Part shown: piece by piece, positions 5,985 to 37,299 of the stretch
Numbering within the stretch: the stretch's first letter is position 1
Layout: each line of letters opens with the position of its first letter
Assembly (NCBI GenBank): GCA_964562705.1
Contig: CAZLUI010000001.1
Coordinates: forward strand, 28,543-85,809
From: an uncultured Staphylococcaceae bacterium
GTDB lineage: Bacteria > Bacillota_I > Bacilli_A > RFN20 > CAG-826
Direction of reading: 5' to 3'
DNA length: 57,267 bases
Translations under genes and position numbers: made by a program
The notes under the pieces: generated by a model
Database searches by the model: none
What the model was told of the DNA's origin: nothing
What the model saw: the letters and a program-made list of their open reading frames with translations, nothing else

Positions 5985-6190
5985 TTATACCTTAGGCGTT
6001 TTTTATTGCAAATTTATACAATGAATATGCCTTAATAATATGATTAAATTATATAAATAATCATGGTTGTAAAAGCGCTTACAAAGTGTTAGAGTGATTA
6101 TGCAATAAACTATGCTTTACTACATTGATTCTCTAATGAACAAATGACCGAAAGGTTGTTTTTATGTTGGAGAGAAAGAGAGGAATACTA

Positions 6191-8757: not shown

Positions 8758-8774
8758 CTTATAAAGGAGTACAA

Positions 8775-11010: not shown

Positions 11011-11045
11011 AAAAGCATTCTGCGTTTGTTGCGGAATGCTTTTTT
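11011..11045. terminator. Bidirectional rho-independent terminator between convergent serA and arcC
   Basis: 11-bp stem (AAGCATTCTGC / GCGGAATGCTT, one G-U), 7-nt loop, with an A-run on one side and a T-run on the other. Confidence 0.8.
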
Positions 11046-11052: not shown

Positions 11053-11970
11053 TTATTTAATGATTGTTCCGGCTTTTCCGTCGAAGGCTAAGTTAGCTTT
11101 TTCAAGGGAAGAGACGATGGCAATTTTGCCAGGCATCTTTTCAAGGAACTTAACACAAGCATTGACTTTTGGATACATGCTACCTTTAGCAAAGTAATCA
11201 GTATTCAGGTAATCTTTCATTTCTTGAAGTGATACTTTCTCAAGCTTCTTTTGATCTTGTTTATTGAAGTTAATATAGACATTATCAACAGCAGTTAAAA
11301 TCACAAGATAGTCAGCATCTACAAGTTCAGCAACTTTAGCAGAAGCGTAATCTTTGTCGATGACCGCAGCGATTCCTTCAAGAGCTTCACCTTTACGAAT
11401 GACAGGGATTCCTCCGCCACCAGCACAGATGACGATATCGCCTTTTTTAACTAATGTTGAAATACTTTCTTTTTCAATAACATCTATTGGAAGTGGTGAC
11501 GCCACGACTCTGCGATAGCCTCGTCCAGCATCTTCTTTCATAGAATAGCCTTTTTCTGCAACGATTTTGTCAGCTTCCTCTTTAGAATAGAAGGCTCCAA
11601 CAGGTTTAGATGGGCTCTTGAAAAGTGGATCATCTTTGTCGACAAGCACTTGAGTGACAACGGTGCAAACATTGCGGACGATGCCTTCTTCTTTAAGAGC
11701 GTTATAGATTGCATTTTGAATATGAAAACCAATATAACCTTGGCTCATAGCCCCGCATTCAGGAAATGGCATATCTGGAGCCGAGGTAGATTCCGTGAAA
11801 GCGAGGTTAATCATTCCTACTTGGGGTCCATTACCGTGGACAATGACAACTTCATTACCTAATTTAATTAAATGGACAATTGATTTAGCGACACCAACAA
11901 GAAGAGCTTTTTGCTCTTCGGCATTTTTTCCTAAGGCATTACCGCCTAAAGAAACGACATATCTAGACAT
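11053..11970 (-). CDS. arcC: Carbamate kinase (YqeA/ArcC family)
   Basis: YVVSLGGNALG, VIVHGNGPQVG and ICAGGGGIPV are typical carbamate kinase motifs. The start is at MSRY (ATG 11968-11970), 8 nt after GGAG; the track ORF extends to 11991. Confidence 0.9.
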   Translation of the reverse strand: MSRYVVSLGGNALGKNAEEQKALLVGVAKSIVHLIKLGNEVVIVHGNGPQVGMINLAFTESTSAPDMPFPECGAMSQGYIGFHIQNAIYNALKEEGIVRNVCTVVTQVLVDKDDPLFKSPSKPVGAFYSKEEADKIVAEKGYSMKEDAGRGYRRVVASPLPIDVIEKESISTLVKKGDIVICAGGGGIPVIRKGEALEGIAAVIDKDYASAKVAELVDADYLVILTAVDNVYINFNKQDQKKLEKVSLQEMKDYLNTDYFAKGSMYPKVNACVKFLEKMPGKIAIVSSLEKANLAFDGKAGTIIK

Positions 11971-12085
11971 ATTTATATCTCCTTGAAACAAATTAATTAT
12001 ATCTTTGTTCCTCGCTTATAACAAACGGGAGTTGAAAAGGCTTTCATTGTTTAGTAAAATTAAATCATAACAAAAAGGGGAGAGT

Positions 12086-12709
12086 ATGAAAAAATCATTA
12101 ATTTTGTTACCATTATTAGCAGCATGCTTAGTTGGTTGTGGCGAATCGTCTGATCCTACAACTAGTACGACAACTAGTACGACAGATTCAACATCAACAA
12201 CAACAACAACAACACCTGCACCAACTGGCGAAGTTGTTTATAGCTTTGCAAACTTAACTGGCAAAGGTGTTGCCTTTGATACTACAACAGCTTTAGCAGC
12301 ATTCTCAGGTGGAGTTCAATCAGGAACCGATATTGTTTCTGCAGTCTCAGAAGTCAGCACTGTTTATGACGGAAGCGGCACTGGTGGTGCCTACGAAAAC
12401 ACAGCTGGTTTAATTAAGTTTGGTAAGAGTGCTGAGTCAGGGTCAATCACCTTAACACTTTCAAAATCAATTAGCCATGTTGTCATTAACTGTTTTGATT
12501 ATTATGTAAAAACAGAAGCACATCCAACAGCCTCCAACAGCGTTGTTGTCAATGGCGTTTCACAAACATGTCCATATGCTGAAACTGCTACACCAGCAGA
12601 TTTAACATTTGATCTTGCCACTGCTTCGAGTACCTTGACAATTGCCTCAGCTAACGTTAATGCAACAAAAGGTGGCCGTTTCCACATGTTCTCAATAAAA
12701 TTGAGCTAA
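12086..12709 (+). CDS. Lipoprotein with a Thr/Ser-rich linker; paralogue of 5166-5984
   Basis: MKKSLILLPLLAACLVG-C lipobox, a T/S linker, then a domain with GLIKFGKSAESGSITLTLSKS similar to the other family members. RBS GGGGAGAG. Confidence 0.75.
   Translation: MKKSLILLPLLAACLVGCGESSDPTTSTTTSTTDSTSTTTTTTPAPTGEVVYSFANLTGKGVAFDTTTALAAFSGGVQSGTDIVSAVSEVSTVYDGSGTGGAYENTAGLIKFGKSAESGSITLTLSKSISHVVINCFDYYVKTEAHPTASNSVVVNGVSQTCPYAETATPADLTFDLATASSTLTIASANVNATKGGRFHMFSIKLS
12158..12214 (+). repeat. In-frame coding micro/minisatellites in the lipoprotein linker
   Basis: Exact tandem 12-mer ACAACTAGTACG x2 (12158-12181) and (ACA)6 (12197-12214), the latter encoding the Thr run. Confidence 0.85.
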
Positions 12710-12731
12710 TTATATAGCTAAATTTACAATT

Positions 12732-12761
12732 AAATCCCTTGGAAATTCTAAGGGATTTTTT
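12732..12761 (+). terminator. Rho-independent terminator after the lipoprotein gene
   Basis: 9-bp stem AAATCCCTT / AAGGGATTT, 9-nt loop, T-run. Confidence 0.8.
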
Positions 12762-12802
12762 GTTGCCTATAAAATTCAAGGTTAATTTTCGTATACGCGT
12801 AC

Positions 12803-12831
12803 TTGCGATGTAAGGCGTTACAATGTAAAAT
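12803..12831 (+). promoter_or_regulatory. Candidate sigma-A promoter of the mocA...ygeW operon
   Basis: TTGCGA (12803-12808), a 17-nt spacer, then TAAAAT (12826-12831), 25 nt upstream of the mocA ATG (RBS GAGGA). Confidence 0.5.
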
Positions 12832-12856
12832 ATAAACATAAATAAACGAGGATTCT

Positions 12857-13417
12857 ATGGCGACAGGAATTATCTTGGCTGGTGGCGAAAGCCGACGTGC
12901 TAATACAAACAAAATGCTGCTTGAGATTTATGATAAGCCGCTTATTTTGCACACGATTGAAAACATGTCTCCTTTCGTTGAGAAGATTATTGTTGTCACT
13001 GGAAAATACCATGAGGAACTTAAACCCCTTTTGAAGGATGTTGAAGTTGTTTATAATGCGGATTATCAAAAAGGAATGTTTTCTTCTGTTCAGGCTGGTG
13101 TTAAGCATGCGGAAGGAAACTTTTTCATTTTTCCTGGTGATTGTCCATTTGTAAAAGCTTCTACTTTCAACGCTTTAATGGTTGGCTCGGATTTTTTAAT
13201 TCGCGTGCCTATGTATAAAGAAAAAACTGGTCATCCAACTTACTTCAATGCAAAAATGAAGGACAAAATATTGTCTGCTCCCACCGATTCAAATCTGCGA
13301 GTTCTAAGAGATGAAGTTGGGTTTGAAACCGTGGAAGTTAATGATCCAAATATCTTAAATGACATTGATACGATAAACGATTATCAGCAGATGATTAACA
13401 AACTTGAAAGGAATTAA
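12857..13417 (+). CDS. mocA: Molybdenum cofactor cytidylyltransferase (MocA/YgfJ family)
   Basis: N-terminal GIILAGGESRR..TNK nucleotidyltransferase motif, ~186 aa, a GDCPF segment and a C-terminal DIDT..DY, as in E. coli MocA. It sits ahead of Mo-hydroxylase genes. Confidence 0.8.
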   Translation: MATGIILAGGESRRANTNKMLLEIYDKPLILHTIENMSPFVEKIIVVTGKYHEELKPLLKDVEVVYNADYQKGMFSSVQAGVKHAEGNFFIFPGDCPFVKASTFNALMVGSDFLIRVPMYKEKTGHPTYFNAKMKDKILSAPTDSNLRVLRDEVGFETVEVNDPNILNDIDTINDYQQMINKLERN

Positions 13418-13419
13418 TT

Positions 13420-14205
13420 ATGAAAGCAAACTCTTACGTTAGAGCCAAATCGCTTGAAGAAGCATATGAACTTCTAAAAGCTAACCCACTTAACAAAATC
13501 CTTGGTGGTGGTCTTTGGCTTAAAAAAGGAAACGCCTCAGTTAATGTGTTAATTGATTTGGTAGACTTAGGCCTAGATAAGATTGAAGATGATGGCGATT
13601 TTATTAAAGTTGGAGCTTTAGTGAATCAAAGAGACTTTGAGAAAAGCGAATTAGTGAAAGAAATATGTCATGGAATACTTAGCAAGGCCGCATCCTCAAT
13701 CATGGGACCTGCCTTTAGACAAGTGGCCACAATTGGTGGCTCAGTATTTGGCAAATATGGTTTTTCTGATTTAATTAGTGCCCTTTTAGTTTGCAATGCT
13801 TCTTTAGTGTTTTACCCAAGTGGAGAAATGAATTTAGAAGATTATTTAAAACAACCAGGATTTTCCAAAGAAATTTTAACTCACATTATCATCAAGAAAT
13901 GTCATCGTGTCTCCTACTTCAAAAAAGTTGGAATCACTGCGTTAGATTATCCAATTATTAATGTCGCAATCACTAGATGTGTCAACCACGATAGATATCG
14001 AGTTGTGGTTGGATCTCGCGCTGGTGTTGCTAGTTTTGCTAGCGATGTCATGGAGGCTTTAGATAATGGCGAAAGAGATTTCGAAAAGGTTGCAAAACTT
14101 GTTTCAAAGATGAAATTCTCCGATAGCTTAGCTGCTAAAGCGGATTACCGTGAACATCTTGCAGAAATATATGTTCGTCGTGGTCTAGAGGAGGTCAACA
14201 AATAA
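13420..14205 (+). CDS. FAD-binding subunit of a xanthine dehydrogenase-family Mo-hydroxylase (YgfM-like, 261 aa)
   Basis: CO-dehydrogenase-flavoprotein-type sequence (FRQVATIGGSVFG...SDLISALLV.NASL). Its size and position match YgfM. The usual GGTDL motif is degenerate (ILGGGLWL). Confidence 0.75.
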   Translation: MKANSYVRAKSLEEAYELLKANPLNKILGGGLWLKKGNASVNVLIDLVDLGLDKIEDDGDFIKVGALVNQRDFEKSELVKEICHGILSKAASSIMGPAFRQVATIGGSVFGKYGFSDLISALLVCNASLVFYPSGEMNLEDYLKQPGFSKEILTHIIIKKCHRVSYFKKVGITALDYPIINVAITRCVNHDRYRVVVGSRAGVASFASDVMEALDNGERDFEKVAKLVSKMKFSDSLAAKADYREHLAEIYVRRGLEEVNK

Positions 14206-14657
14206 TGATCGTAAAATTTAAATTAAATGGTTTACCAGTTAGTTTTGATGTTAAACCTGGAGAATTCCTCCTTGATACTTTAAGAGAACACGGCGTTAAA
14301 TCGCTAAAGAAAGGTTGTGACGGCTCTGCTTGTGGTGTTTGTTCTCTCTTATTCGATGGACACCCAGTTTTATCTTGTTCACTTCTTTCACTCCGTTGTG
14401 AAGGCCATGAAATTACAACAGTTGAAGGCATACAAAGTGTCGCTAGTAAAATTGCGGAATGCTTTGCTAGTGAAGGTGCTGATCAATGCGGTTATTGCAA
14501 CTCTTCCTTCGCGTTAGTGATTCACGCTTTAAGCCAAGAACTCAAAAACCCAACTGACGAAGAAATTAAGAAATATATGGTTGGTAACCTATGCCGTTGC
14601 ACTGGCTATCAATCTCAAATTAAGGCAATTAAGAAATATTTAGGAGGGCTCAAATAA
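14205..14657 (+). CDS. [2Fe-2S] small subunit of a Mo-hydroxylase
   Basis: GCDGSACGVCS, QCGYC and CRCTGY cysteine motifs. TAATG coupling at both ends. Confidence 0.88.
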   Translation: MIVKFKLNGLPVSFDVKPGEFLLDTLREHGVKSLKKGCDGSACGVCSLLFDGHPVLSCSLLSLRCEGHEITTVEGIQSVASKIAECFASEGADQCGYCNSSFALVIHALSQELKNPTDEEIKKYMVGNLCRCTGYQSQIKAIKKYLGGLK

Positions 14658-16975
14658 TGAAGAAATTCAAAGTAGTTAATAACCTCACCCCTTCCCTCGA
14701 TGGTAAAGGCTTGATGATGGGCCGTCCTTATTACACCGATGATTTTGCGGATCAAAATTCGTTAATTATTAAGATTTTAAGAAGCCCACACGCTTTTGCA
14801 CATATCAAGAACATTGATGTTTCGGAAGCTGAAAAACTTGCCGGAGTTGAATGTGTTTTAACATATAAAAATGTTCCACATGTTTCTTTCTCCCGTGCAG
14901 GACAAGGCTATCCTGAACCATCGCCTCACGATAAATTCGTTTTGGATGAATATGTTCGTTATGTTGGTGATGAGGTCGCCGTTGTGGCAGCCGTTAATGA
15001 AGAAATCGCTCTTGAAGCTTTGAAACTAATCAAAGTGGAATACGAAGTTCTTGAGCCAATTTTAGATTTTGAAAAATCATATGAGAACAAAACTATCATC
15101 CATCCAGAAGATGGCATCATTGAAATGTTCCCGATTGGTTTTGAGCCAAAAAAGAATGTTGCTGCTGCCTATGAGATGCATGTTAATGATGTCGATGAAG
15201 TTTTCAAAAAATGTGATTATATTGTCGAAGAAACTTTCTATTCTCAAGCCCAAGCTCATGCGATGCTTGAGCCACATGCTTGCAATGCGCGTCTTGACGC
15301 TCATAATCGTTTGGTTATTTATTCAACAACTCAAACTCCTTACCACGTTCGTCGTATCATTGCGAAAACACTTGGTTTACCAACTGAGAAGATTCGGGTA
15401 ATTAAGCCACGTGTTGGCGGTGGTTTTGGTGGCAAACAAGCTTTCCACGGAGAGATGTTTGCATCCCTTGTTACTTTAAGAACAAATAAACCTTCCAAGT
15501 GTGTTTTCACGCGTGAAGAAGTATTTGGTTCATCTTATACTCGTCATCCTATGAGAATCACTATGAAAATCGGCGCAACAAAAGATGGCAAGATTCGTGC
15601 TATCGATTGTTCCGCTCTTTCCGATACTGGAGCTTATGGTGAACATTCGCTAACAGTCTTCATGATTGTTGGTTCTAAAGTATTACCTTTATATAACAAA
15701 GTTGACGCTGTTAGATTTGGTGGCAAAGTTGTTTATTCTAACCATGTTTCTGCTGGTGCCTATCGAGGCTATGGCGCGATTCAAGGCAACTACGCCTTAG
15801 AAGCGACCATTGATATTTTGGCGGAAAAGATGGGTGTTGATCCAATTAAACTCCGTGAAGATAATTCGATGCGTGAAAAAGAAACTTCTCCAATTTTTGA
15901 GATTATGGGCGAAGGAACAAAAGGCACTCCAATGATTATGGAAAGTTGCAAGCTTCCATATTGTATAAGTCGTGGTAAAGAACTTATTGGTTGGGATGAT
16001 AAATACCCAATGAAAAAAGTTGGACCACACACAATTAGATCAGTTGGTATGGCTATTGCTATGCAAGGCAGCGGAATTCCATTCCTTGATATGGGTAGCT
16101 GTTCCATCAAATTAAATGATGGTGGTTCTTACATGGTCACTGTTGGAGCAACCGATATTGGGCAAGGTTCCGACACCGTCATCGCTCAAATCGTGGCTGA
16201 AGAATTGTCGACCACAATTGATAAAGTTTTGATATATTCATCAGACACTGATTTAACTCCGTATGATTGCGGCGCTTACGCCTCATCAACCACCTATGTT
16301 AGTGGCAACGCTGCTTATCAAGCAGCTCACAAAATGCGCGAGAGACTTATTAGCGAAGCTGCTGAATTCTTAGAAGTTAAAGAAGATACAGTTGATTTCG
16401 ATGGTGTAAAGTTTGTTTCTGGCGATAAAGAAGTAACGTTGGATGATTTATCAACTAAACGTTTATATAACACAAATACCCATCAAATTGCAGTCACCGA
16501 AAGCTATCATGGTCATGTTTCTCCACCTCCATTCATGGCAGGTTATGCCGAAATTGAAATCGACACTGAAACATATGAATACAAAGTTTTAAATTATGTC
16601 AGCGTTGTTGACTGTGGCACAACTATTAACCCAGGCCTAGCAAAAGGTCAAGTTGAGGGGGGAATTATTCAAGGTTTAGGAATGGCAAGTTATGAAGAAG
16701 TAAAATATTCTCCAAAAGGCAAACTATTATCCAACACCTTTGATTCATACCATATTCCAACAACGATGGAAGTTAATAAATTAACAACTGAATTTGCGGA
16801 TTCTTATGAAATCAGTGGACCATTTGGTGCTAAATCGGTAGGAGAGATTGGTATTGATACTCCTCCAGCGATTATTTGCAATGCGATTTACAACGCTCTT
16901 GGCGTGAGAATTCACTCTCTGCCAATTACTCCAGAAAAAATCTACGAGGCCATGAAAGCAAAAGAAGGCAAATAA
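14657..16975 (+). CDS. Molybdopterin-binding large subunit, xanthine dehydrogenase/aldehyde oxidase family (XdhD-like, split from its Fe-S domain)
   Basis: RVGGGFGGKQ (15416-15439), AYRGYGAIQ and a C-terminal GAKSVGEIG (catalytic Glu). 772 aa. Confidence 0.88.
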   Translation: MKKFKVVNNLTPSLDGKGLMMGRPYYTDDFADQNSLIIKILRSPHAFAHIKNIDVSEAEKLAGVECVLTYKNVPHVSFSRAGQGYPEPSPHDKFVLDEYVRYVGDEVAVVAAVNEEIALEALKLIKVEYEVLEPILDFEKSYENKTIIHPEDGIIEMFPIGFEPKKNVAAAYEMHVNDVDEVFKKCDYIVEETFYSQAQAHAMLEPHACNARLDAHNRLVIYSTTQTPYHVRRIIAKTLGLPTEKIRVIKPRVGGGFGGKQAFHGEMFASLVTLRTNKPSKCVFTREEVFGSSYTRHPMRITMKIGATKDGKIRAIDCSALSDTGAYGEHSLTVFMIVGSKVLPLYNKVDAVRFGGKVVYSNHVSAGAYRGYGAIQGNYALEATIDILAEKMGVDPIKLREDNSMREKETSPIFEIMGEGTKGTPMIMESCKLPYCISRGKELIGWDDKYPMKKVGPHTIRSVGMAIAMQGSGIPFLDMGSCSIKLNDGGSYMVTVGATDIGQGSDTVIAQIVAEELSTTIDKVLIYSSDTDLTPYDCGAYASSTTYVSGNAAYQAAHKMRERLISEAAEFLEVKEDTVDFDGVKFVSGDKEVTLDDLSTKRLYNTNTHQIAVTESYHGHVSPPPFMAGYAEIEIDTETYEYKVLNYVSVVDCGTTINPGLAKGQVEGGIIQGLGMASYEEVKYSPKGKLLSNTFDSYHIPTTMEVNKLTTEFADSYEISGPFGAKSVGEIGIDTPPAIICNAIYNALGVRIHSLPITPEKIYEAMKAKEGK

Positions 16976-18282
16976 TGAACGATATTTCTTTAATTAATGG
17001 TTTGGTCTATTTAAACGATAAATGGCAACAAACGAACTTGTCTATTTTAGGCGAGAAGATTTCCTATATCGGACCAGAAATTAAAGAAGCAAAAGAAATG
17101 ATTGATTGCCAAGGATTAAAAATCATGCCTGGTTTAATTGATCCTCATGTTCATTTTGAACTTAATTGTGGCCGTTTAACTTCGGTTGATGATTTCTATT
17201 ATGGCAGTGTTGCAGCCGCTTATGGTGGAGTGACAACAATTATCGATTTCCTCGATCCAACTAGCAACGCATTAGATTTAGAAAAATCATATTTTGAACG
17301 TCTTGCTCTAGCTAAGAAATCAATTGTCGATTACCACATGCACGCTTGTATAAAGATGCCAAACGGTTCATTAGAAGAATATGTTAAAACAGTACTTAGA
17401 CTGGGCATGAAAACCATTAAACTTTTCACCACCTACTCCGATACTGGTCGAAGAACATATGACAAAGATATTATTGAATTATTGAAATTATCCCAAAAAT
17501 ATAAAATCATGCTTTTAGCCCACATTGAAGCGGATGACATGATTTCAATTAAGGATGAATTCACCTATAAAGATTTGCCAATTTCTCGTCCTGGTTTTTC
17601 TGAAACATTGGAAGCGTTAAAGCTGGCTTCCTATGTCCGCGAAAATGGTGGTTACTTATATATGGTCCATTGCTCAAGTGGTGAAACATTAAGACATTTA
17701 AAAGAAGAATACGCTGACATCCTTGGCAAGCATTTGTTCATAGAATCTTGTCCTCAATATTTTGTGTTTAATAATCAAGTCTTAGACGAGGAAAACGGCA
17801 AGTTATTTACTTTTGCTCCACCATTAAGAAGCGAAAGAGAAAGACAACTATTAGTTGCAAACTTTGATTTCCTAAATACAATTGGCACGGATCATTGTGC
17901 TTTTAATTCTAGCGACAAAGATTGGCCAACATTAGCCGGCTTTCCTCTTGGGGTTGGTGGCATTGAACATTCCTTCTCTCTTATGTATAAAAGATTTGGG
18001 GATAAGGTCATTGACAAAATGAGCAAAAACGTTGCAGTTTTAGAAGATTTCCCAACAAAAGGCCAATTAAAAGTGGGAATGGACGCCGATATATCAGTCT
18101 TTAAAGAAATGGATGACTATTTTGAACAAGCTGGTCATGGCAAATGCGACTATTCAATTTATGATGGTGTTCTTGGTAGTGGTCAATTTGTTCACACTCT
18201 TGTGCGAGGAAAGTTTGTTTTAAAGAATCGTCAAATAGTTAAACACGTCGGTAAAGAAATTATCTGTGGAGCAGACAAATGA
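16975..18282 (+). CDS. hyuA: Cyclic amidohydrolase, D-hydantoinase/dihydropyrimidinase family (HyuA/YgeZ-like)
   Basis: PGLIDPHVHF, GGVTTIIDF, KLFTTY (carboxylated-Lys position), AHIE, VHCSS, ESCPQY, APPLR and GTDHCAF. The start ATG 16975 overlaps the upstream stop; the track ORF from 16876 is an in-frame extension inside the previous gene. Confidence 0.88.
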   Translation: MNDISLINGLVYLNDKWQQTNLSILGEKISYIGPEIKEAKEMIDCQGLKIMPGLIDPHVHFELNCGRLTSVDDFYYGSVAAAYGGVTTIIDFLDPTSNALDLEKSYFERLALAKKSIVDYHMHACIKMPNGSLEEYVKTVLRLGMKTIKLFTTYSDTGRRTYDKDIIELLKLSQKYKIMLLAHIEADDMISIKDEFTYKDLPISRPGFSETLEALKLASYVRENGGYLYMVHCSSGETLRHLKEEYADILGKHLFIESCPQYFVFNNQVLDEENGKLFTFAPPLRSERERQLLVANFDFLNTIGTDHCAFNSSDKDWPTLAGFPLGVGGIEHSFSLMYKRFGDKVIDKMSKNVAVLEDFPTKGQLKVGMDADISVFKEMDDYFEQAGHGKCDYSIYDGVLGSGQFVHTLVRGKFVLKNRQIVKHVGKEIICGADK

Positions 18283-19580: not shown

Positions 19581-19582
19581 CA

Positions 19583-22788: not shown

Positions 22789-23257
22789 TTTTATTTTAAA
22801 TCATCAAGCTTTATCAATTGATGTCGATCCAAGTAAGAGATTGCTGGATTTTATCCGTGATGATATGCACTTAAGTGGCACTAAAGAAGGCTGTGGTGAA
22901 GGTAGCTGCGGCGCTTGCGTTGTCCTTATGGATGGTTATTCAGTTAACTCATGTCTTATTCCAATGGCTAATGTTGTTGGCCATGAAATAATCACTATTG
23001 ACGGTTTCAAAAAGACTGAAGAATTTAAAGTCTTGTCGGAAGCATTTGCTGAAGAAGGTGGTTCCCAATGTGGATTCTGTACCCCAGGAATGATTATCGC
23101 TTCTCAATCTTTACTGTCTCATAACCCTCACCCAAGCGAAGAAGAGATTCGCCACGCTTTAGCGGGTAACCTCTGCCGTTGCACTGGTTATCAAGCCATT
23201 ATTCATGCTGTTCAACTTGCTAGCAAAATCGGAGGAAAATTATGGGAGAAAAAGTAA
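22775..23257 (+). CDS. [2Fe-2S] small subunit of the second Mo-hydroxylase
   Basis: GCGEGSCGACV, QCGFCTPG and CRCTGY. 14-nt overlap with the large-subunit gene. Confidence 0.9.
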   Translation: MARINFILNHQALSIDVDPSKRLLDFIRDDMHLSGTKEGCGEGSCGACVVLMDGYSVNSCLIPMANVVGHEIITIDGFKKTEEFKVLSEAFAEEGGSQCGFCTPGMIIASQSLLSHNPHPSEEEIRHALAGNLCRCTGYQAIIHAVQLASKIGGKLWEKK

Positions 23258-24084
23258 TTCCAAGCTCTTTAGCTGAAGCATTAGATTTCTTGTCTACTCA
23301 CGATTGCAATATTGTGGCAGGTGGTAGTGACATAATGCTTCAAAAGAAAAATACTGCTGGACTGCTTCCACACTTTGATAAGGATGTTCTCTTTATTTCC
23401 AATCTAAGAGAACTTCATTATGAAAGAAAGGAAGATGATAGTGTCCATATCGGAGCAACGATGACTCTAGAAGAAATTCTTGACCACACAATTACTCCTC
23501 AAGTATTGAAAGATTGTCTTTCGGAATTGGCCTCAAGCAACATTCGCCATTTTGCGACTTTGCCTGGCAATATTGCCAATGCCTCACCAGCAGGCGATAC
23601 AATTGTGGTCGAAATCTTACTTGACGCAATGGTTAAATTGACTTCAAAAACTGGTTCTCGCTATGTGAAAGTAGAAGACTTTGTTAAAGGCGTTCGAAAA
23701 ATTGATTTACATAACGATGAATTGATCGAAGAAGTTATATACCCAAGCAATGATTATGATGTGATTAAATGGTTCAAAGTAGGTTCTCGCAAAGCAGAAT
23801 CAATTTCGAAAGTATCATTTGCCGGCGCATACAAAATTGAAGGTGGCAAAATCAAATCAATTTCGATTGCATTTGGTTCTGTGTTTATGAAGGCTATTCG
23901 CTCCCATGAGCTCGAAAAAGAACTCATCGGCATGAGCTTAAAGGAGCTAAGTTCTTCTATTGAAGAATTTGTGTCCAAATATAGCAATGTCATCAGTCCA
24001 ATTGATGACCAAAGATCGAACAAAACTTATCGCCGCAATGTGGCCGAAAACATTGTTCGTGAATTCTTAAAAGAAATTAAATAA
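23242..24084 (+). CDS. FAD-binding subunit of the second Mo-hydroxylase
   Basis: VAGGSDIMLQ and IRHFATLPGNIANASPAGD (CO-DH flavoprotein family). RBS GGAGG at 23230-23234. Confidence 0.85.
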   Translation: MGEKVIPSSLAEALDFLSTHDCNIVAGGSDIMLQKKNTAGLLPHFDKDVLFISNLRELHYERKEDDSVHIGATMTLEEILDHTITPQVLKDCLSELASSNIRHFATLPGNIANASPAGDTIVVEILLDAMVKLTSKTGSRYVKVEDFVKGVRKIDLHNDELIEEVIYPSNDYDVIKWFKVGSRKAESISKVSFAGAYKIEGGKIKSISIAFGSVFMKAIRSHELEKELIGMSLKELSSSIEEFVSKYSNVISPIDDQRSNKTYRRNVAENIVREFLKEIK

Positions 24085-24095
24085 GGAGGAAATAG

Positions 24096-25340
24096 ATGAA
24101 TTATATTAAAGGCTATCGTTGCACGATTTGCCACAAATTCTTTCGCCCTGATGAAGTGGATTTAACCTGTCCTATCTGTGGGGAAAAAGGCATTCTTGAT
24201 ATTGAATATGATTACGATGCTTTGAAGAAAGTATTAACCAAAGAATACTTCGCCAAAAATTCTAATTATTCAATGTGGAGATACACTCCAATAATGGGCA
24301 TTGAACCAGACCATGTCGATGAAATGTTACGCGTTGGCTGGACACCATTATATGAAGCGAGGAACCTTGAAAAGATTTTTGGCATTAAGAAGCTCTACAT
24401 CAAAGATGATGGACTTAATCCGAGTGGTTCAAGTAAAGATAGAGCGAGTGGTGTTGCTGTCTTAAAAGCAATTGAAGCAGGTGCGAAAACTATCGCTTGT
24501 TCCTCAACTGGAAATGCAGCCTCATCATGCGCTTGTCAAGCAGCTCATATGGGTTTAAAGGCGGTTATCTTTGTTCCAAAGAGAGCTCCAATTGGCAAGG
24601 TTACTCAAATTAGTCTTTACGGTGCAACTTTAATAAGTGTCGATGGAGACTATAAAGCGGCTTTCTCTTTATCAAAGGAAGCTATTAAGAAATACGGCTG
24701 GTACAACCGTAATGCTGCAATCAATCCATTTATGATTGAGGGCAAGAAAACTGTATCAATGGAGATCGCTGAACAACTTCATTTCCAACCAACAGACTGG
24801 GTTGCTGTTAGTGTCGGAGATGGTTGTACAGTTGGAGGAGTTTACAAAGGTTTTGCGGAGTTTTTTAAACTCGGTTTAATCGATAGAATTCCTCGTATAC
24901 TCGGTGTTCAATCAACTGGATGTGAGCCATTTGTTATTGCAAGTCACAATAATGAGTCTCTCAAAGAAGCCGATGAAAACACAATTGCTGACTCAATCGC
25001 TGTCGGCATTCCAAGAAACCCTATTAAGGCTCTTAATGCAATTAAGTTATCTAATGGGGTATGGATTTCAATACCTGATGATGATATTATTAAAGCAATG
25101 GCTTTACTTGGCAGAACTGAAGGCATCTTCGGTGAACCTGCCGGAGTAGCCGCTATCGCTGGTATTAAGAAAGCGATTGAAGAAGGAATCATTAAGAAAG
25201 ATGAGACTGTGACTATGATTGTGACAGGCAACGGACTTAAAGATCCATTGAATGCCCAAAAGGCAATCACCCCACCAACCCTTATGAAACCAAGCTTAGA
25301 TGACTTGGACAAATTTTTGAAAGAAAAAGGAGCAATTTAA
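24096..25340 (+). CDS. Threonine synthase-like fold-type-II PLP enzyme with an N-terminal CxxC...CxxC zinc ribbon
   Basis: YRCTICHKFF...LTCPICG zinc ribbon. LYIKDDGLNPSGSSKDRA (ThrC-type PLP-lysine motif), SSTGNAASS and a Gly-rich loop. RBS GGAGG. Confidence 0.7.
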   Translation: MNYIKGYRCTICHKFFRPDEVDLTCPICGEKGILDIEYDYDALKKVLTKEYFAKNSNYSMWRYTPIMGIEPDHVDEMLRVGWTPLYEARNLEKIFGIKKLYIKDDGLNPSGSSKDRASGVAVLKAIEAGAKTIACSSTGNAASSCACQAAHMGLKAVIFVPKRAPIGKVTQISLYGATLISVDGDYKAAFSLSKEAIKKYGWYNRNAAINPFMIEGKKTVSMEIAEQLHFQPTDWVAVSVGDGCTVGGVYKGFAEFFKLGLIDRIPRILGVQSTGCEPFVIASHNNESLKEADENTIADSIAVGIPRNPIKALNAIKLSNGVWISIPDDDIIKAMALLGRTEGIFGEPAGVAAIAGIKKAIEEGIIKKDETVTMIVTGNGLKDPLNAQKAITPPTLMKPSLDDLDKFLKEKGAI

Positions 25341-25341
25341 T

Positions 25342-26712
25342 ATGTCAAAAATCCCATTTGGACCAACGTATGATGAGATGCTAAATCCATCACACCAAGA
25401 TCCTAAAACCAGAGCAGCAGCTCTAAAGGCTCTTAAAGAAAATGAGCTTGATCCAGTTAACTTATTCAACATTACTTGGAAAAATGAAAAGAATGAAGTT
25501 AACAAAATCGTTCTTCCAAAAGAACTAACCGGTGTTGACGCAAACATCGTTGTTCTTCTTGGAAAGTATTTCCCATCAGGTTCCCACAAAGTCGGACCTG
25601 CCTATGCTACATTGATGGAAGGCTGTGTTGATGGAGAAATTATTCCAGGTAAACACACCATTCTTGGTCCATCAACTGGTAACTTTGGCATTGGCGTTTC
25701 CTATATTACAAACTTGATGAAGTATGATGCAATTGTCATCATGCCAGATAACATGTCTAAAGAAAGATATGAACGCATCAGCAAATATGGCGCCAAACTC
25801 GATTTGACACCAGGCAGCGAATCTGACGTTATTCTCACTCTTGAAAGAACATATGAACTCAAGAAAGACCCAAAGAATCGCACTCTTGCTCAATTTGAAT
25901 TATTACCAAACTACCGTTTCCATCGTCATGTTACAGGTAATTCTTGTATCGAAGCCGTTAAAGGAATCGGTAATGGTCGTGTTGCTGCCTTCTGCTCCGC
26001 TCCAGGCAGTGCTGGTACATTAGCCGCTGGTGATCAAATTAAAGCTGTTTTCCCAGAATGTAAAATTGTCGCTTTGGAACCACACGAATGTTCAACTTTG
26101 ACCAATGGTGGTCTTGGACAACACCGTATTGAAGGCATCGGCGACAAGATGATTACTCTTATTCATAACGTTCTCACCACAGACTTCATCACCCAAATTA
26201 TTGATGAAGATTGTGTTCGTGGTTTAGCTGTCATTCACGAAGGTACCAAAGTTCTTGAACAACATGGTATTAGCAAGAAAGTTGCCGAATCTATGATCAA
26301 TCTATTTGGTGTTTCTGGTATCTGCAATATTCTCGGTGCAATCAAGATGGCAAAATACCTCAAACTAGGACCAAATGATAACGTCGTTACCATTGCTACT
26401 GATAGCTTTGATAGATATCCATCAGTTATGGATGATCTCCACAAACGCGAACTCGAAGTTACCCCAAACGTTCTTGAAAGATGGTACGAAGATGTCTTCG
26501 AAAACGCTGATACAAAGTACGTATTAGACACTCGTGGCGATGCTGCAAAAGAAGTGTTGTTCAAACAAAAAGAACACGATTGGCTCAAATTCGGATACAA
26601 ACAATCATATCTTGACGAGATGAGAAAACCAGAGTTCTGGGAAGATGAATATAACAAAATTCATGATTATGATAAGAAAATTATCGCTTTACGTGGAAAG
26701 GAAGTTAAATAA
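25342..26712 (+). CDS. Fold-type-II PLP-dependent enzyme (PALP superfamily; OrtB 'lyase/thiolase'- or TrpB/DpaL-like), 456 aa
   Basis: [13 protein letters not shown] (candidate PLP lysine; compare DpaL FKMLGGAYA and TrpB GSHK), [13 protein letters not shown] and SAPGSAGT. No OrtA-like small ORF is adjacent. Subfamily uncertain. Confidence 0.6.
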
Positions 26713-27935
26713 TGAAAGTCTCCTTTGAAGAAGTATTAAAGTTTGCCGAAGCATATCAAAAAGATATGACGAAGTTCCTTCGTGATATGATCGCTATCCC
26801 AAGCGAATCATGTGACGAAAAGAAAGTAGTTCTCCGTATCAAAGAAGAAATGGAAAAGGTTGGTTTTGATAAAGTTGTCATCGATAAGATGGGCAATATC
26901 CTTGGCTATGTTGGCCATGGTAAACATCTCATCGCAATGGACGCTCACATCGATACCGTCGGTATTGGTGAAATCAAAAACTGGTCCTTTGACCCATACA
27001 AAGGTTATGAAGATGACATCCATATCGGTGGACGTGGCGCTTCTGACCAAGAAGGTGGCATGGCTTCAATGGTTTATGCTGCTAAAATTATCAAAGATTT
27101 ACATCTAGAAGATGACTATACTCTCCTCATTACTGGCACTGTCCAAGAAGAAGACTGTGATGGCCTTTGCTGGAAGTACATTATTGAAGAAGATAAGATT
27201 CGTCCAGAATTTGTTGTTTCAACCGAACCAACAAGTTGCCAAATTTATCGTGGCCATCGCGGACGCATGGAAATCAAAGTTGATGTTCGCGGTATTTCCT
27301 GCCATGGTTCTGCTCCAGAACGTGGCGTGAACGCAATTTACAAAATGGCACCAATCATTGAACAAATTGAAAAGCTCAATGAAAACGGACTTGCCTATGA
27401 TCCATTCTTAGGAAAAGGCACTGTCACTATTTCCCAAATCTTCCACAAATCACCAAGCCGCTGCGCAGTGGCTGATGGTTGCTGGATCAGCTTGGATCGT
27501 CGCCTTACTATCGGTGAAAACGATAAGACATCAATCGCTGAAATTAAAGCATTGCCAGCAGTCAAAGCTGCCAAAGCCGAAGTCTCAATGTATATGTATG
27601 AACGTCCATCCTATACTGGACTTAACTACCCAATCGAATGTTACTTCCCAACTTGGGTCATTCCAGAGGGTTCAGTCTACTGTCAATCAATGAAGGAAGG
27701 TTATCAAAAATTATTCGGTAAAGATCCTGTTATTGATAAATGGACATTCTCAACAAACGGAGTTTCCATCATGGGCCGTTATGGCATTCCATGTATCGGA
27801 TTTGGTCCAGGTGATGAGAAAGAGGCTCATGCCCCAAATGAAAAGACCAGAAAACATGACTTGGTTATATGTGCAGCATTATATGCTGTCTTGCCAGCCA
27901 TGTACTTAGAACATCTTAATAAAGGAGAAAAATAA
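26712..27935 (+). CDS. ygeY: YgeY-family M20 peptidase/deacylase ('selenium metabolism-linked hydrolase')
   Basis: Near-collinear with E. coli YgeY as recalled: [71 protein letters not shown] and EPT.CQ.YRG.RGRMEI. Confidence 0.88.
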
Positions 27936-27937
27936 AG

Positions 27938-28948
27938 ATGGATAAAATTGAACCAAGATTTGCCGGTCGTCACTTGATTACCTTAGAAGACTTCTCTAAG
28001 GAAGAAATCGACTACATGCTCAAAGTGTCACATGAACTAAAAGATGCTTTCTACCGCAACGAACCAACTCAATGGCTCGTTGGAAAAACTGGTTTCTTAA
28101 TGTTCTTTGAACAATCAACTAGAACTAGAAACTCATTTGAATCAGGCATGGCTCAATTAGGTGGCCACGCTACATTCCTCGATACATCAATGATGCAAAT
28201 ATCTCATGGTGAATCTGCTAAGGATACAGCCGTTATTCTCTCTAGCTTTGGTCATATGATTGCTTGCCGTTATTGCAACTGGGGACTAGGCAACAAATAT
28301 ATTCGCGAAATGGCGAAATATTCAACTGTCCCAGTCATCAACTTACAATGTGATATTTATCACCCTATGCAAGCTCTTGCTGATTTAATGACTATCGAAG
28401 ATGAATTTAAAAAGACCAAACATTTAAAGGTCTCTGTTATTTGGGCTATGGCCACAACTCACAAGAAACCGATTTCTGTTCCAGTTAGCCAAGTTCTTCT
28501 TTTCCCTCGTTATGGCATCGATGTAACACTTGCCTATCCAGAAGGATACGATTTACCTGATTGGGTTATCGAAAAAGCTCGTAAAAACGCTGCCGAAAAT
28601 GGTGGTTCATTAACTATTACTCACGACATGGATGCTGCTTATAAAGATGCTGATGTTGTCTTCCCAAAGAACTGGGGTTCATGGGTTACTAACCAATCAA
28701 CAACCGTTGTCGATGATGCACTTTTAGCACTCAAGACTTGGAAATGCACACCAGATAAAATGGCACTTGCTAAACCAACGTGCCGTTATATGCACGCTCT
28801 TCCAGCCGACCGTGTCAATGAAGTTGTCGATGAGGTTATCGACGGACCACAATCAGTTATCTACCAAGAAGCTGAAAACAGAATTCATACTGCAAAAGCT
28901 GTTATGGCATTGTTTGTTCACGATAAACTTGAATCTGATCGCCGCTAA
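27938..28948 (+). CDS. ygeW: YgeW-family (knotted) carbamoyltransferase
   Basis: STRTR carbamoyl-P motif. NLQCDIYHPMQALADL..., KPISVP, GIDVTLAYPEGYDL and YKDADVVFPKNW parallel E. coli YgeW (NLQCDIDHPTQSMADL, KPLSVP, GMDVTLAHPEGYDL, FKDADIVYPKSW). Confidence 0.85.
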   Translation: MDKIEPRFAGRHLITLEDFSKEEIDYMLKVSHELKDAFYRNEPTQWLVGKTGFLMFFEQSTRTRNSFESGMAQLGGHATFLDTSMMQISHGESAKDTAVILSSFGHMIACRYCNWGLGNKYIREMAKYSTVPVINLQCDIYHPMQALADLMTIEDEFKKTKHLKVSVIWAMATTHKKPISVPVSQVLLFPRYGIDVTLAYPEGYDLPDWVIEKARKNAAENGGSLTITHDMDAAYKDADVVFPKNWGSWVTNQSTTVVDDALLALKTWKCTPDKMALAKPTCRYMHALPADRVNEVVDEVIDGPQSVIYQEAENRIHTAKAVMALFVHDKLESDRR

Positions 28949-28961
28949 TTAAATCTTAGTT

Positions 28962-28995
28962 AAGCAAGTTCTATATTGGACTTGCTTTTCTTTTT
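28962..28995 (+). terminator. Rho-independent terminator ending the mocA...ygeW operon
   Basis: 8-bp stem AAGCAAGT / ACTTGCTT, 10-nt loop, T-rich tail TTTTCTTTTT. Confidence 0.75.
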
Positions 28996-29020
28996 GCGCG
29001 TTATGTGTATAATAAGTGGC

Positions 29021-30298
29021 ATGAAAAGTATTAAGAATTTGTTTCGTATTGGACGTGGTCCAAGTTCATCTCACACAATCGGTCCTGACCGGGCTGCTAA
29101 GTTTTTAAAAGCTAAATATCCTAATGACATTAAAATTGAAGTGATATTATATGGCTCACTTGCTTTCACAGGTAAAGGGCACTTGACAGACAAGGTCATT
29201 CTTGATGTTTTCTTGCCTACTCCAACTCATATAACTTTCGACTTTAAAACGAAAGTAAGTTTTCCAAATACTTTCGATATTACTTTCTATTTTGCGGATC
29301 GTGATCCAATCACAAAAAGAGTACTTTCTCTTGGTGGTGGTGCTATATCAATATCTGATGAATTGGAAGAGAATGAAGAGGATGTTTATCCAGAAAAGAG
29401 TTTCGCTGAAGTTGTTGAATTTTGTCACACTAACAATCTCACTTTGCCTGAATATGTTGAACATTATGAAGGCAAAGAAATGTTTGAATACTTAAAAACT
29501 GTTTGGAATCAAATGACTGACACAATTCATGCCGGATTAACAAATCGTGGACTTTTGCCAGGAAAATTGAAAATCCAACGTCGAGCAGCAAGCTTTTTAA
29601 TACCTTCCCATATGAAAGAATCTAGCTTTTCTCGCACCAACCGAATAATCTCCGCTTTCGCCTTTGCAACCAATGAAGAAAATGCTGCTGGTGGTGTAGT
29701 TGTTACTGCTCCTACTTGTGGCAGCAGTGGCACTCTTCCTGCTGTATTAATGGAAATGGTTGACCGTTACGAATTCACCGATAAAGAAATTATTAACGCA
29801 ATAGCGGTTGCCGGTGTTATTGGCAACATTGTTAAATCTAACGGTTCAATATCTGGTGCAGAAGCTGGCTGCCAAGCTGAAATTGGTACTGCATGTTCTA
29901 TGACAGCCGCGGCTGCTGCCTATTTAAAAGGCTTCAACATTGATCAAATTGAATACGCAGCTGAAGCAGCTTTGGAACATTCACTTGGTCTAACTTGTGA
30001 CCCAGTTGAAGGTTATGTTCAGATTCCGTGCATTGAAAGAAATGCCGTGGCTGCTATAAAAGCATTGACTGCCACTTATTTAGCAGAATATGCCTCCTCA
30101 TCTCATCGCGTTAGTTTTGACACTATTGTCCAAACAATGTTAGTAACTGGTAAAGATATGAAGAAAAAATACCGTGAAACAAGCAAAGGTGGTCTTGCGG
30201 TTGATTTTGTAAAAAGTGAACGAAAAGCTCGTAAGAGTGCTGAAGAAAAAAAGAAAGCCTTAAAGGCAAAAGCTAACGAGAAGAAAGGAGAACAATAA
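29021..30298 (+). CDS. sdaA: L-serine ammonia-lyase, Fe-S dependent, single-chain form, with a Lys-rich C-terminal extension
   Basis: FRIGRGPSSSHTIGP, TAPTCGSSG, GAEAGCQAEIG and LGLTCDPV..YVQIPCIERNA. The start is taken at ATG 29021 (MKSIKNLF); the TTG at 28976 lies inside the terminator. The tail is KSERKARKSAEEKKKALKAKANEKKGEQ. Confidence 0.88.
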   Translation: MKSIKNLFRIGRGPSSSHTIGPDRAAKFLKAKYPNDIKIEVILYGSLAFTGKGHLTDKVILDVFLPTPTHITFDFKTKVSFPNTFDITFYFADRDPITKRVLSLGGGAISISDELEENEEDVYPEKSFAEVVEFCHTNNLTLPEYVEHYEGKEMFEYLKTVWNQMTDTIHAGLTNRGLLPGKLKIQRRAASFLIPSHMKESSFSRTNRIISAFAFATNEENAAGGVVVTAPTCGSSGTLPAVLMEMVDRYEFTDKEIINAIAVAGVIGNIVKSNGSISGAEAGCQAEIGTACSMTAAAAAYLKGFNIDQIEYAAEAALEHSLGLTCDPVEGYVQIPCIERNAVAAIKALTATYLAEYASSSHRVSFDTIVQTMLVTGKDMKKKYRETSKGGLAVDFVKSERKARKSAEEKKKALKAKANEKKGEQ

Positions 30299-34970: not shown

Positions 34971-34990
34971 CATCTATATAGTCTTGAATA

Positions 34991-35014
34991 AATGTCACTT
35001 CAGTGGCATTTTTT
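34991..35014 (+). terminator. Rho-independent terminator after nusG
   Basis: 8-bp stem AATGTCAC / GTGGCATT (one G-U), TTCA loop, T-run. Confidence 0.7.
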
Positions 35015-35079
35015 CATTTTTTGCTTGCATATGTGCATACACAATAATAATATAGAGAAGTTAAGCGAGGTTAACATTT

Positions 35080-37248: not shown

Positions 37249-37272
37249 TAAAACACTAAGTGTTTTCCTAAG

Positions 37273-37299
37273 GTGTAGAACGGAAGTTCTGCACTTTTT
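37273..37299 (+). terminator. Rho-independent terminator after the ATPase gene
   Basis: 9-bp stem GTGTAGAAC / GTTCTGCAC (one G-U), GGAA loop, TTTTT. Confidence 0.8.

Follow-up and report, generated by a model that had tools for sequence, protein, structure and literature searches.

A conserved operon of an uncultured Staphylococcaceae bacterium as a candidate variant of the 2,8-dioxopurine pathway

How might a bacterium complete the anaerobic breakdown of urate when its gene cluster lacks the enzyme that releases pyruvate at the end? This question is raised by an operon at 12857-28948 on the + strand of a 57-kb stretch of DNA from an uncultured Staphylococcaceae bacterium (contig CAZLUI010000001.1; the whole stretch of 57,267 nucleotides is called the window here). 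No ortholog of that last enzyme, YgeX, is present in the window, as a first reading of the letters alone (the original prediction) had stated, nor in 80 related loci from GTDB; two genes for pyridoxal phosphate (PLP) enzymes of fold type II lie instead between the xanthine dehydrogenase (XDH) genes and ygeY. The operon is real and conserved, and it combines the modules of a known pathway in a new way. We consider it likely that its genes provide a 2,8-dioxopurine (reductive uricolytic) pathway of variant type, in which a ThrC-derived enzyme most likely replaces YgeX. The core of the original prediction, an anaerobic purine/urate cluster of the ygeW...xdhD kind, holds.

The pathway of the E. 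coli ygeW...xdhD cluster was solved in two 2025 studies (Li et al. 2025; Liu et al. 2025), which reconstituted it in vitro (10.1101/2025.04.24.650524; 10.1101/2025.05.19.654654). Urate is reduced to 2,8-dioxopurine by XdhD-YgfM, or by DOPDH in Clostridium sporogenes, and Glu606 of XdhD shapes the formation of this product (Li et al.). YgfK then dearomatises the ring, a role played in C. difficile by the PydA-like UacX (Li et al. 2025), and opening of the hydantoin ring by HyuA leads to 2,3-diureidopropionate. One ureido group is taken off by YgeW and carbamate kinase with a gain of ATP, a step for which C. difficile uses the hydrolase UacY instead; the second is taken off by YgeY, and 2,3-diaminopropionate is converted to pyruvate by YgeX. 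Hypoxanthine and xanthine enter via a separate XDH. The two groups differ over the ureido group on which YgeW acts, and the stereochemistry has yet to be settled (PMC12990295). The scheme sketched in the original prediction (ring reduction, two cyclic-amidohydrolase openings, ATP from carbamoyl phosphate, a hydrolysis, and a three-carbon remnant going to pyruvate) matches the reconstituted pathway, whilst its remark that the reaction order is not fully assigned has been overtaken, the order having been assigned in 2025 except for the YgeW dispute.

Gene content and extent of the operon

The genes of the operon, the nearby kinase gene and the signals that bracket the block are given below; model scores are from hidden Markov models (HMMs).

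11053-11970, - strand: carbamate kinase (ArcC/YqeA-like); TIGR00746 376 bits (cut-off 358), 50% identity to E. coli YqeA
12732-12758, + strand: terminator-like hairpin, 12-pair stem then a T run; closes the upstream lipoprotein gene and insulates the operon
12803-12831, + strand: promoter-like site, TTGCGA-17-TAAAAT, 9/12 match, in the sole intergenic gap before the first gene
12857-13417, + strand: MocA-like nucleoside triphosphate transferase, candidate molybdenum cofactor cytidylyltransferase; TIGR03310 133 bits (cut-off 186), 27% identity to E. coli MocA
13420-14205, + strand: flavin adenine dinucleotide (FAD) subunit of hydroxylase 1 (FAD1); YgfM 64 bits against XdhB 50 bits by blastp, all NCBIfam matches below cut-off
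14205-14657, + strand: [2Fe-2S] subunit of hydroxylase 1 (FeS1); XdhC-type models 116-138 bits
14657-16975, + strand: molybdenum subunit 1 (Mo1), XdhD/DOPDH type; 37% identity and 501 bits to E. coli XdhD, 361 bits to XdhA
16975-18282, + strand: divergent D-hydantoinase/HyuA-family cyclic amidohydrolase; TIGR02033 best at 215 bits (cut-off 393), 27% identity to E. coli HyuA
18279-19580, + strand: SsnA-like aminohydrolase; NF005540 333 bits (cut-off 444), 32% identity to E. coli SsnA
19583-20677, + strand: UacX-type reductase, candidate YgfK stand-in; DHO_dh and two Fer4 Pfam domains, no FAD/NAD domain
20677-22788, + strand: molybdenum subunit 2 (Mo2), classical XDH type; XdhA 223 bits, XdhD 152 bits
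22775-23257, + strand: [2Fe-2S] subunit of hydroxylase 2 (FeS2); pucE and XdhC models 159-176 bits, 42% identity to E. coli XdhC
23242-24084, + strand: FAD subunit of hydroxylase 2 (FAD2); XdhB models 136-141 bits, closer to XdhB than to YgfM
24096-25340, + strand: threonine-synthase-derived (ThrC-like) PLP enzyme with N-terminal Zn ribbon; TIGR00260 210 bits (cut-off 167)
25342-26712, + strand: extended CysK-like PLP enzyme, 456 amino acids; cysteine-synthase models all below cut-off, 134 against 351 bits
26712-27935, + strand: YgeY, M20 amidase predicted to act on one ureido group; TIGR03526 690 bits (cut-off 321.5), 70% identity to E. coli YgeY
27938-28948, + strand: short YgeW-like carbamoyltransferase, 336 amino acids; ornithine carbamoyltransferase (OTCase) model 259 bits (cut-off 281), YgeW models 180-189 bits (cut-offs 453-500)
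28962-28987, + strand: terminator-like hairpin, 10-pair stem then TTTTCTTTTT; operon end

Gene content, gene order, family scores, motifs and conservation of the neighbourhood were observed directly, and every catalytic assignment is one that we infer. Hydroxylase 2 (Mo2/FeS2/FAD2, classical XDH type) would convert hypoxanthine and xanthine to urate, and hydroxylase 1 (FAD1/FeS1/Mo1, split XdhD-YgfM type) would remove the 6-oxo group of urate to give 2,8-dioxopurine, with MocA supplying the cytosine dinucleotide cofactor. The UacX-type reductase, which would carry flavin mononucleotide (FMN) and [4Fe-4S] clusters, could then dearomatise 2,8-dioxopurine; the SsnA-like hydrolase would open the six-membered ring and the hydantoinase-like enzyme the five-membered ring, yielding 2,3-diureidopropionate. 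Phosphorolysis of one ureido group by the short YgeW-like transferase would release carbamoyl phosphate, from which the divergent carbamate kinase would make ATP, and YgeY would hydrolyse the other ureido group to leave 2,3-diaminopropionate. The ThrC-derived PLP enzyme, in YgeX's place, would turn this into pyruvate and ammonia. If hypoxanthine were the starting point, two oxidations would balance two reductions.

The + strand block comprises 14 genes with 13 junctions, all of them overlaps or gaps of at most 11 nt, the widest gap running from 24084 to 24096. TAATG overlaps are located at 14203, 14655, 16973, 20675 and 26710 and an ATGA overlap at 18279, and the start of the hydantoinase gene was set at ATG 16975 because of the TAATG junction at 16973. 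The original prediction was accurate in these coordinates and in its largest gap; its count of sixteen genes has to be lowered to 14, which is also the total of its own gene list, and of its range of 11053-30298 only 12857-28948 stands as one operon, with arcC, the lipoprotein gene and sdaA as separate units. The carbamate kinase gene lies 0.87 kb upstream, divergent and close to the predicted 0.9 kb, with an AAGGAG ribosome-binding site before its ATG at 11970. Between 10900 and 30500, + strand terminator-like hairpins with at least 10 pairs occur only at 11011-11043, 12732-12758 and 28962-28987. The last two flank the 14-gene block, and the final one is the terminator expected downstream of it. 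The promoter-like site at 12803-12831 was also found as predicted; the DNA is AT-rich and the scan gave 66 such sites against 57 expected by chance, so this one is not significant alone. G+C content is uniform over the region, and tRNAs are absent from the window. An Rfam scan of the whole window gave 0 matches and hence no purine riboswitch or leader. We infer a single transcript, the 14 genes forming one transcription unit; their order recurs across dozens of species-level genomes, which goes beyond chance.

The two molybdenum hydroxylases can be told apart. Mo1 differs from the XdhA type in its score and, in the alignment, by two XdhD-only insertions, one of which holds the equivalent of Glu606 (MGEGT against IGEGK), and its FAD subunit is slightly closer to YgfM than to XdhB. 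Mo2 lacks the XdhD insertion and carries GGKE, FRGFG and GEL motifs, which we take to be the positions of E802, R880 and E1261 in bovine numbering. Since Mo1 is XdhD-like with the Glu606 loop and Mo2 is XdhA-like, the first trio is the DOPDH candidate and the second the XDH candidate, and Mo1 itself is a candidate for the reduction of urate to 2,8-dioxopurine.

The reductase combines an FMN domain like those of dihydroorotate dehydrogenase (DHODH) and PydA with a C-terminal domain for two [4Fe-4S] clusters, and scores 150 bits with the DHODH model and 110 bits with the PreA model, both below cut-off. We liken it to C. difficile UacX, for which an architecture has been described in print, and suggest that it replaces YgfK. 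The absence of YgfK had been remarked upon in the original prediction and a full-length YgfK is indeed missing from the window, but with the UacX-type architecture this would leave no gap in the proposed pathway. For the SsnA-like protein, a candidate opener of the six-membered ring, SsnA is the best family, with the next unrelated family at 127 bits, although the cut-offs of NF005540 and TIGR03314 (444 and 455 bits) are not reached. The hydantoinase-like enzyme is a candidate ureidomethyl-hydantoin hydrolase. The profile and BLAST comparison that had been proposed for the open reading frames gave a divided outcome, with YgeY and carbamate kinase passing their cut-offs, the SsnA- and hydantoinase-like proteins having the expected family as their best match at scores below the cut-off, and the MocA-like protein also staying below its cut-off.

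PLP enzymes and their conserved neighbourhood

Neither of the two PLP proteins passes the DpaL (YgeX) model. The ThrC-like protein reaches 59 bits against a cut-off of 276 and shares about 26% identity with YgeX over half its length. Public records name it threonine synthase; it passes TIGR00260, a broad model, and falls short of NF006050 (277 against 303 bits). It aligns to solved threonine synthases over the whole catalytic domain at 194-220 bits (1UIM, 2ZSJ, 2D1F, 6CGQ), but five positions that are invariant in these four structures (T88, N154, S155, R160 and N188 in T. thermophilus) read A, A, A, M and D here. Amongst 71 close orthologs from such clusters, position 88 is Ala and position 188 Asp in every case (71/71 each), with Ala or Cys at 154, Ala or Gly at 155 and Met or Leu at 160; in 24 more distant ones (38-48% identity) Ala88 and Asp188 are again universal (24/24 each), position 154 is Ser, Thr or Cys, and Arg160 is found in 0/24. 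The invariant pocket residues are thus lost in 95/95 cluster copies. T88, N154, S155 and R160 are, we presume, ligands of the substrate phosphate, a literature search having given no usable source for these roles. The protein appears to form a distinct subfamily with a changed pocket, for which threonine synthesis is unlikely.

The CysK-like protein, named cysteine synthase or PLP-dependent enzyme in public records, is 74-93% identical across lineages. It retains the PLP lysine, Asn loop, Gln, phosphate loop and Ser of CysK, with PLP and carboxylate ligands preserved, and adds conserved extensions of about 55 residues at the N-terminus and about 90 at the C-terminus, which bring it to 456 residues where the cysteine synthase CysK/CysM core has some 300-320. 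An AlphaFold2 model built on a 13-sequence alignment had a mean predicted local distance difference test (pLDDT) score of 63.8, with residues 78-187 below 50, and was set aside as too poor. Homolog searches with this protein, the ThrC-like protein and the transferase returned only close relatives, at about 70% identity or more, which informed taxonomy and naming but gave no more distant context.

We scanned GTDB species-representative genomes with the 456-residue CysK-like protein as the anchor. At least 510 stretches matched, of which the best 80 (74-92% identity) were examined; these came from gut and rumen Bacilli metagenome-assembled genomes (MAGs), Candidatus Fiminaster equi, isolates of Izemoplasmatales, Acholeplasmatales and Mycoplasmatota, and other Bacillota, and 51 of the 80 had enough flank for counting. 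The presence of the anchor in these loci is by selection. The ThrC-like gene and YgeY accompany it in 51/51, as does a carbamoyltransferase (46 short, 5 true YgeW). SsnA and a molybdenum subunit are each found in 49/51, the hydantoinase in 47/51 and the UacX-type reductase in 43/51, with YgfK in 6 others; YgeX is found in 0/51. In Izemoplasmatales-type loci an adenine deaminase gene lies inside the block.

Particularly informative is one canonical locus, L074, from a 4.2-Mb genome. Here YgeW (775 bits), HyuA (478), SsnA (664), YgeY (689) and arcC all pass their thresholds and a YgfK-like gene is present (44% identity by tblastn). The CysK-like gene directly follows ygeW, the ThrC-like gene lies between arcC and ygeY, and there is no ygeX. 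Because both PLP genes occur in this canonical setting without ygeX, the ThrC-like and PALP genes are conserved cluster members and not passengers.

A second scan, of metagenomes, was anchored on a divergent CysK-like clade (34% identity to the window protein) and gave 26 loci with at least 5 kb on both sides. Thirteen of the 26 lie in purine clusters, 10 of these with a ThrC-like gene, 1 with a DpaL/YgeX-like gene and 2 with neither; a further 3 have a single purine marker. In L148 and L157 a full-length DpaL-like gene (35-36% identity to E. coli YgeX over 397 residues) stands beside the CysK-like gene and no ThrC-like gene is present. A ThrC-like and a YgeX-like gene occur together in 0 of the 160 loci examined, and the two look like alternates. 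The strict view that the PLP pair as a whole replaces YgeX was softened, since DpaL-like and CysK-like genes coexist in L148 and L157. Members of the divergent clade often stand alone among housekeeping genes (L113, L115, L116, L119, L120 and others), and the CysK-like family may have a function more general than purine catabolism.

Two further observations concern the relatives. Amongst Mycoplasmatota and Izemoplasmatales loci such as L066, L071 and L075, YgfK or UacX is combined with the short transferase, or YgfK with true YgeW, and these varied combinations imply that pathway modules have been exchanged independently. The loci nearest to the window (L012, L014, L016 and L048, at 85-92% identity) are in bins labelled Coriobacteriaceae, Bacteroidaceae, Lachnospiraceae and Gemmiger formicilis; such inconsistent names for near-identical operons suggest mislabelled or contaminated bins.

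The ThrC-derived enzyme, then, is most likely the alternate to YgeX, releasing pyruvate and ammonia, and the CysK-like enzyme is a conserved additional component that may act on albizziin or on one stereoisomer. A bolder combination can be put forward tentatively, and we are inclined to doubt it as a whole: that YgeX has been replaced by a new diaminopropionate ammonia-lyase of independent origin, the ThrC-derived enzyme, and that the published pathway lacks a step which the CysK-like enzyme performs. Under this joint reading the added step could possibly be a beta-elimination from the toxic isomer albizziin (2-amino-3-ureidopropionate), or the handling of a stereoisomer. A literature search found no paper that treats ThrC-like or CysK-like enzymes together with ygeY or ssnA, and these enzymes go unmentioned in the two 2025 papers and in the Percudani commentary; in the literature searched, no description was found of the ThrC-derived and CysK-like PLP enzymes or of the short YgeW-like transferase.

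The short carbamoyltransferase and rival readings

The 336-residue transferase was called YgeW-like in the original prediction. It fails both curated models of that family (180 and 189 bits against cut-offs of 500 and 453 for TIGR03316 and NF005538), for which the true YgeW of L074 serves as a reference, and with 336 residues, against roughly 396 in YgeW, it is shorter and without the YgeW insertions. OTCase is its best-scoring HMM and public records name it ornithine carbamoyltransferase, yet it stays below the cut-off of that model too (TIGR00658), has no ornithine-binding DxxxSMG loop and reads HALP where OTCase has HCLP. All four signature motifs of YgeW are present (QCDxxHPxQ, KPISVP, FPKNW and HALPADR; as patterns NLQCDxxHPxQ, KP[IL]SVP, [YF]PK[NS]W and HxLPAD, around the second-substrate site), and a catabolic OTCase identity was rejected on these motifs and the missing DxxxSMG. 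A search of 1.8 billion cluster representatives returned no relative outside its own cluster above about 49% identity, and the nearest clusters carry the same YgeW motifs. In a neighbour-joining tree, calculated without support values, its clade adjoins YgeW, apart from SMG-bearing OTCases. What ties the protein to YgeW is its motifs and its place in the tree, nothing else; on these it is a short YgeW-like form outside the curated family that probably works like YgeW.

A number of points weigh against a 2,8-dioxopurine operon with a ThrC-derived substitute for YgeX. According to Liu et al., selD, yqeB and yqeC always accompany the cluster, and E. coli YqeB and YqeC have no match in the window, as predicted (SelD itself was not searched for), although a yqeB-like gene lies near the related clusters L079 and L175. 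Nor does the window hold a purine transporter, the permease having been predicted absent: E. coli XanQ/UacT/GhxQ gave no match, and the same search with YgeV, full-length YgfK or YgeX gave none either. The SsnA-, hydantoinase-, MocA-, YgeW- and UacX-like proteins all score below curated cut-offs, the likeness of the reductase to UacX compares an architecture with a published description and not one sequence with another, and the carbamoyltransferase tree carries no support values. The ligand roles of the threonine-synthase residues are presumed ones, the alternation of YgeX with the ThrC-like gene is based on two YgeX-bearing loci only, and 10 of the 26 divergent-clade loci, such as L120 in a housekeeping context, have no purine marker.

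Even if the pathway is accepted, the PLP roles could be distributed differently. The CysK-like enzyme might itself be the beta-eliminating lyase for diaminopropionate or ureido-alanine, with the ThrC-like enzyme as an accessory, or the pair might act jointly, for example as a racemase and an L-specific lyase, given that the intermediate is the D (R) isomer. Both genes occur in 51/51 loci, the CysK-like active site is complete for beta-elimination or replacement, and this is the more conserved protein of the pair, at the 74-93% identity noted above. CysK relatives are also known to handle ureido nucleophiles, the O-ureido-serine synthase 3x43 being among the structural matches, and the R configuration of the intermediates and the disputed regiochemistry leave room for such an activity. 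Against this, the pairing of the CysK-like gene with a full-length DpaL-like gene in L148 and L157 means that it is not simply redundant with YgeX, and E. coli and C. sporogenes finish the pathway without any extended CysK-like enzyme; we judge this distribution of roles to be rather unlikely.

Far less probable still is a different pathway altogether, in which the block would be wholly or partly a reductive pyrimidine (Pyd-type) operon for uracil or thymine and the xanthine dehydrogenases would have a separate function. The reductase and the hydantoinase do have their best matches in DHODH/PreA and dihydropyrimidinase models, and a genuine PreT/PreA pair lies at 1422-3903 of the same window. 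However, the M20 enzyme is a threshold-passing YgeY that is 70% identical to that of E. coli, genes for an SsnA-like protein, a YgeW-like transferase and two molybdenum hydroxylases lie among the supposed pyrimidine genes, relatives have adenine deaminase inside the block, and canonical clusters have the same PLP genes. The public names threonine synthase, cysteine synthase and ornithine carbamoyltransferase would in turn fit a reading in which these three genes belong to ordinary threonine, cysteine and arginine metabolism and are merely located in the operon, as would the TIGR00260 match of the ThrC-like protein, the OTCase model as best hit of the transferase, and the serine-pathway genes and cysS that flank the region. 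This we find the hardest of all to credit, since the co-location is invariant across distant lineages and differing gene orders, the threonine-synthase pocket residues are replaced in every copy, the transferase has YgeW motifs in place of DxxxSMG, and the CysK-like protein, with its two extra domains, is far under the cysteine-synthase cut-offs. A 2,8-dioxopurine pathway with the ThrC-derived enzyme as the alternate to YgeX is the reading that we prefer.

If that preferred reading is right, it has practical consequences. Gut anaerobes use the 2,8-dioxopurine pathway to clear urate, and the pathway is a target in the probiotic treatment of gout. Surveys that use the gene set of E. coli or C. 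sporogenes would miscount or mislabel clusters such as this one, and the same risk attaches to counting any PF00291 or PF00185 protein as YgeX or YgeW. The modules appear to mix freely: a split XdhD with a FAD subunit, UacX or YgfK, a short or a knotted carbamoyltransferase, and YgeX or a threonine-synthase-derived enzyme. On the bolder joint reading, two uncharacterised PLP families would belong to anaerobic uricolysis in many species, and their public names as threonine synthase and cysteine synthase would be wrong. The two conserved PLP enzymes could bear on the regiochemistry and stereochemistry of the last steps, and a CysK-like missing step, if true, would bear on the dispute over which ureido group is removed first. 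The pathway would also reach into Bacilli from animal guts and sediments that are wall-less or related to Mollicutes, for which the scavenging of nucleic acids is regarded as a main lifestyle.

The surrounding window and comparison with known systems

The closest relatives of the window are uncultured gut and rumen Bacilli MAGs, some in bins whose names are plainly unreliable, with Izemoplasmatales, Acholeplasmatales and Mycoplasmatota as more distant relatives, and TGA is a stop codon here. The reduced, Mollicute-like host suggested in the original prediction is borne out only to the extent that Mollicute-related lineages are among these more distant relatives.

Several neighbouring features deserve mention. 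A gene for a PreT-like NAD(P)-binding subunit (1422-2654) adjoins preA (2656-3903; 624 bits against a cut-off of 335), and the two make up a dihydropyrimidine dehydrogenase pair that has no adjacent dihydropyrimidinase gene; the hydantoinase-like enzyme of the operon, 13 kb away, might serve this pair, or PreT might pass electrons to the UacX-like reductase. Just upstream of the purine region, a tight + strand run at 6164-10999 contains gdhA, a DUF1015 protein gene (7531-8757), serC and a serA-like dehydrogenase gene, so that the purine operon is flanked by serine-pathway genes upstream and by sdaA-cysS downstream. At 12086-12709, between arcC and the first operon gene, lies the gene for a predicted lipoprotein of 207 residues with a signal peptide, a Cys lipobox and a Thr/Ser-rich linker; it matches nothing in Pfam or NCBIfam, and its gene carries its own divergent promoter-like sites. 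Downstream, in 28988-30298, sdaA has an ambiguous start, ATG 29003 or 29021 (public calls of 431 against 425 residues). A perfect TATAAT at 29008-29013, only 7 nt before ATG 29021 and without a -35 element, would point to a leaderless transcript. The gene is directly adjacent to the operon, as predicted, but lies behind the terminator and overlaps cysS by 1 nt, and so is probably a separate unit. For these reasons, and because only loci of the closest gut clade (14 of 80) have it next to the operon, it was rejected as the last pathway step.

Further along, a heavy-metal P-type ATPase gene (35080-37248, within 34410-38556) lies between nusG and rplK-rplA, in a secE-nusG-rplKAJL-rpoBC cluster that is usually contiguous, and NusG falls just under the mycoplasma-type NusG model (143.9 against 150). 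An M6-like metalloprotease gene (47937-49652) is found between rpoC and the rpsL-fusA-tuf region, and two genes for RDD-family membrane proteins follow tuf (53973-56667); the first of these, from GTG 53973, overlaps the end of tuf, and its true start is probably later.

With the E. coli cluster (ygeW-ygeX-ygeY-hyuA-yqeA ... mocA-ygfK-ssnA-ygfM-xdhD) the operon shares YgeY (70% identity), carbamate kinase (50%), an XdhD-type molybdenum subunit with the Glu606 loop, a YgfM-like FAD subunit, SsnA-, HyuA- and MocA-like genes and a second XDH (of XdhABC type nearby in E. coli). The proposed logic is also the same: a reduction is followed by two ring openings and the loss of two ureido groups, and carbamoyl phosphate yields ATP. 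In contrast to E. coli, XdhD is here split into separate FeS and molybdenum genes, a UacX-type reductase stands for YgfK and a 336-residue relative that fails the YgeW models stands for YgeW, two other PLP enzymes are found instead of YgeX, and all genes are in one operon in a window without yqeB/yqeC, a sigma-54 regulator or NCS2 permeases.

The C. difficile variant (UacX, UacY; Li et al. 2025) has in common with the operon a PydA-like FMN/[4Fe-4S] reductase without a FAD/NAD domain in place of YgfK, as judged from its description. C. difficile has no YgeW or carbamate kinase and uses the hydrolase UacY, and its XdhD has no FAD subunit, whereas the operon keeps the carbamoyltransferase and the kinase and its hydroxylase 1 has a FAD subunit. 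With an E. coli-like, FAD-bearing XdhD, a C. difficile-like UacX and a retained ATP-yielding transferase and kinase, the operon can be viewed as a hybrid of both published variants.

Purine loci in this part of the bacterial tree have been seen before. Wasmund et al. 2021 (PMC8289736) noted Izemoplasmatales loci with XDH genes next to purine deaminases as purine-catabolic and Clostridium-like, so that finding a purine locus in this lineage is, as such, no novelty. Those organisms are wall-less or Mollicute-related Bacilli, and related Izemoplasmatales and Mycoplasmatota loci show the same block; their work predates the pathway and left the downstream genes uninterpreted, and the block in the window has no deaminase.

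Individual enzymes invite comparison as well. Liu et al. liken YgeW/YqeA to a catabolic OTCase with carbamate kinase, and the arginine deiminase pathway likewise runs a carbamoyltransferase phosphorolytically with carbamate kinase to make ATP, as we propose here. Unlike in that module, the transferase lacks the ornithine-binding SMG loop and sits in a purine operon, and the window reading frames scanned against NCBIfam or Pfam included neither an arginine deiminase nor an arginine/ornithine antiporter. The ThrC-like protein, finally, keeps the PLP lysine and the STGN loop of threonine synthase with five invariant positions changed, and it has the size and PLP fold type of YgeX/DpaL, whose place in the clusters it occupies.

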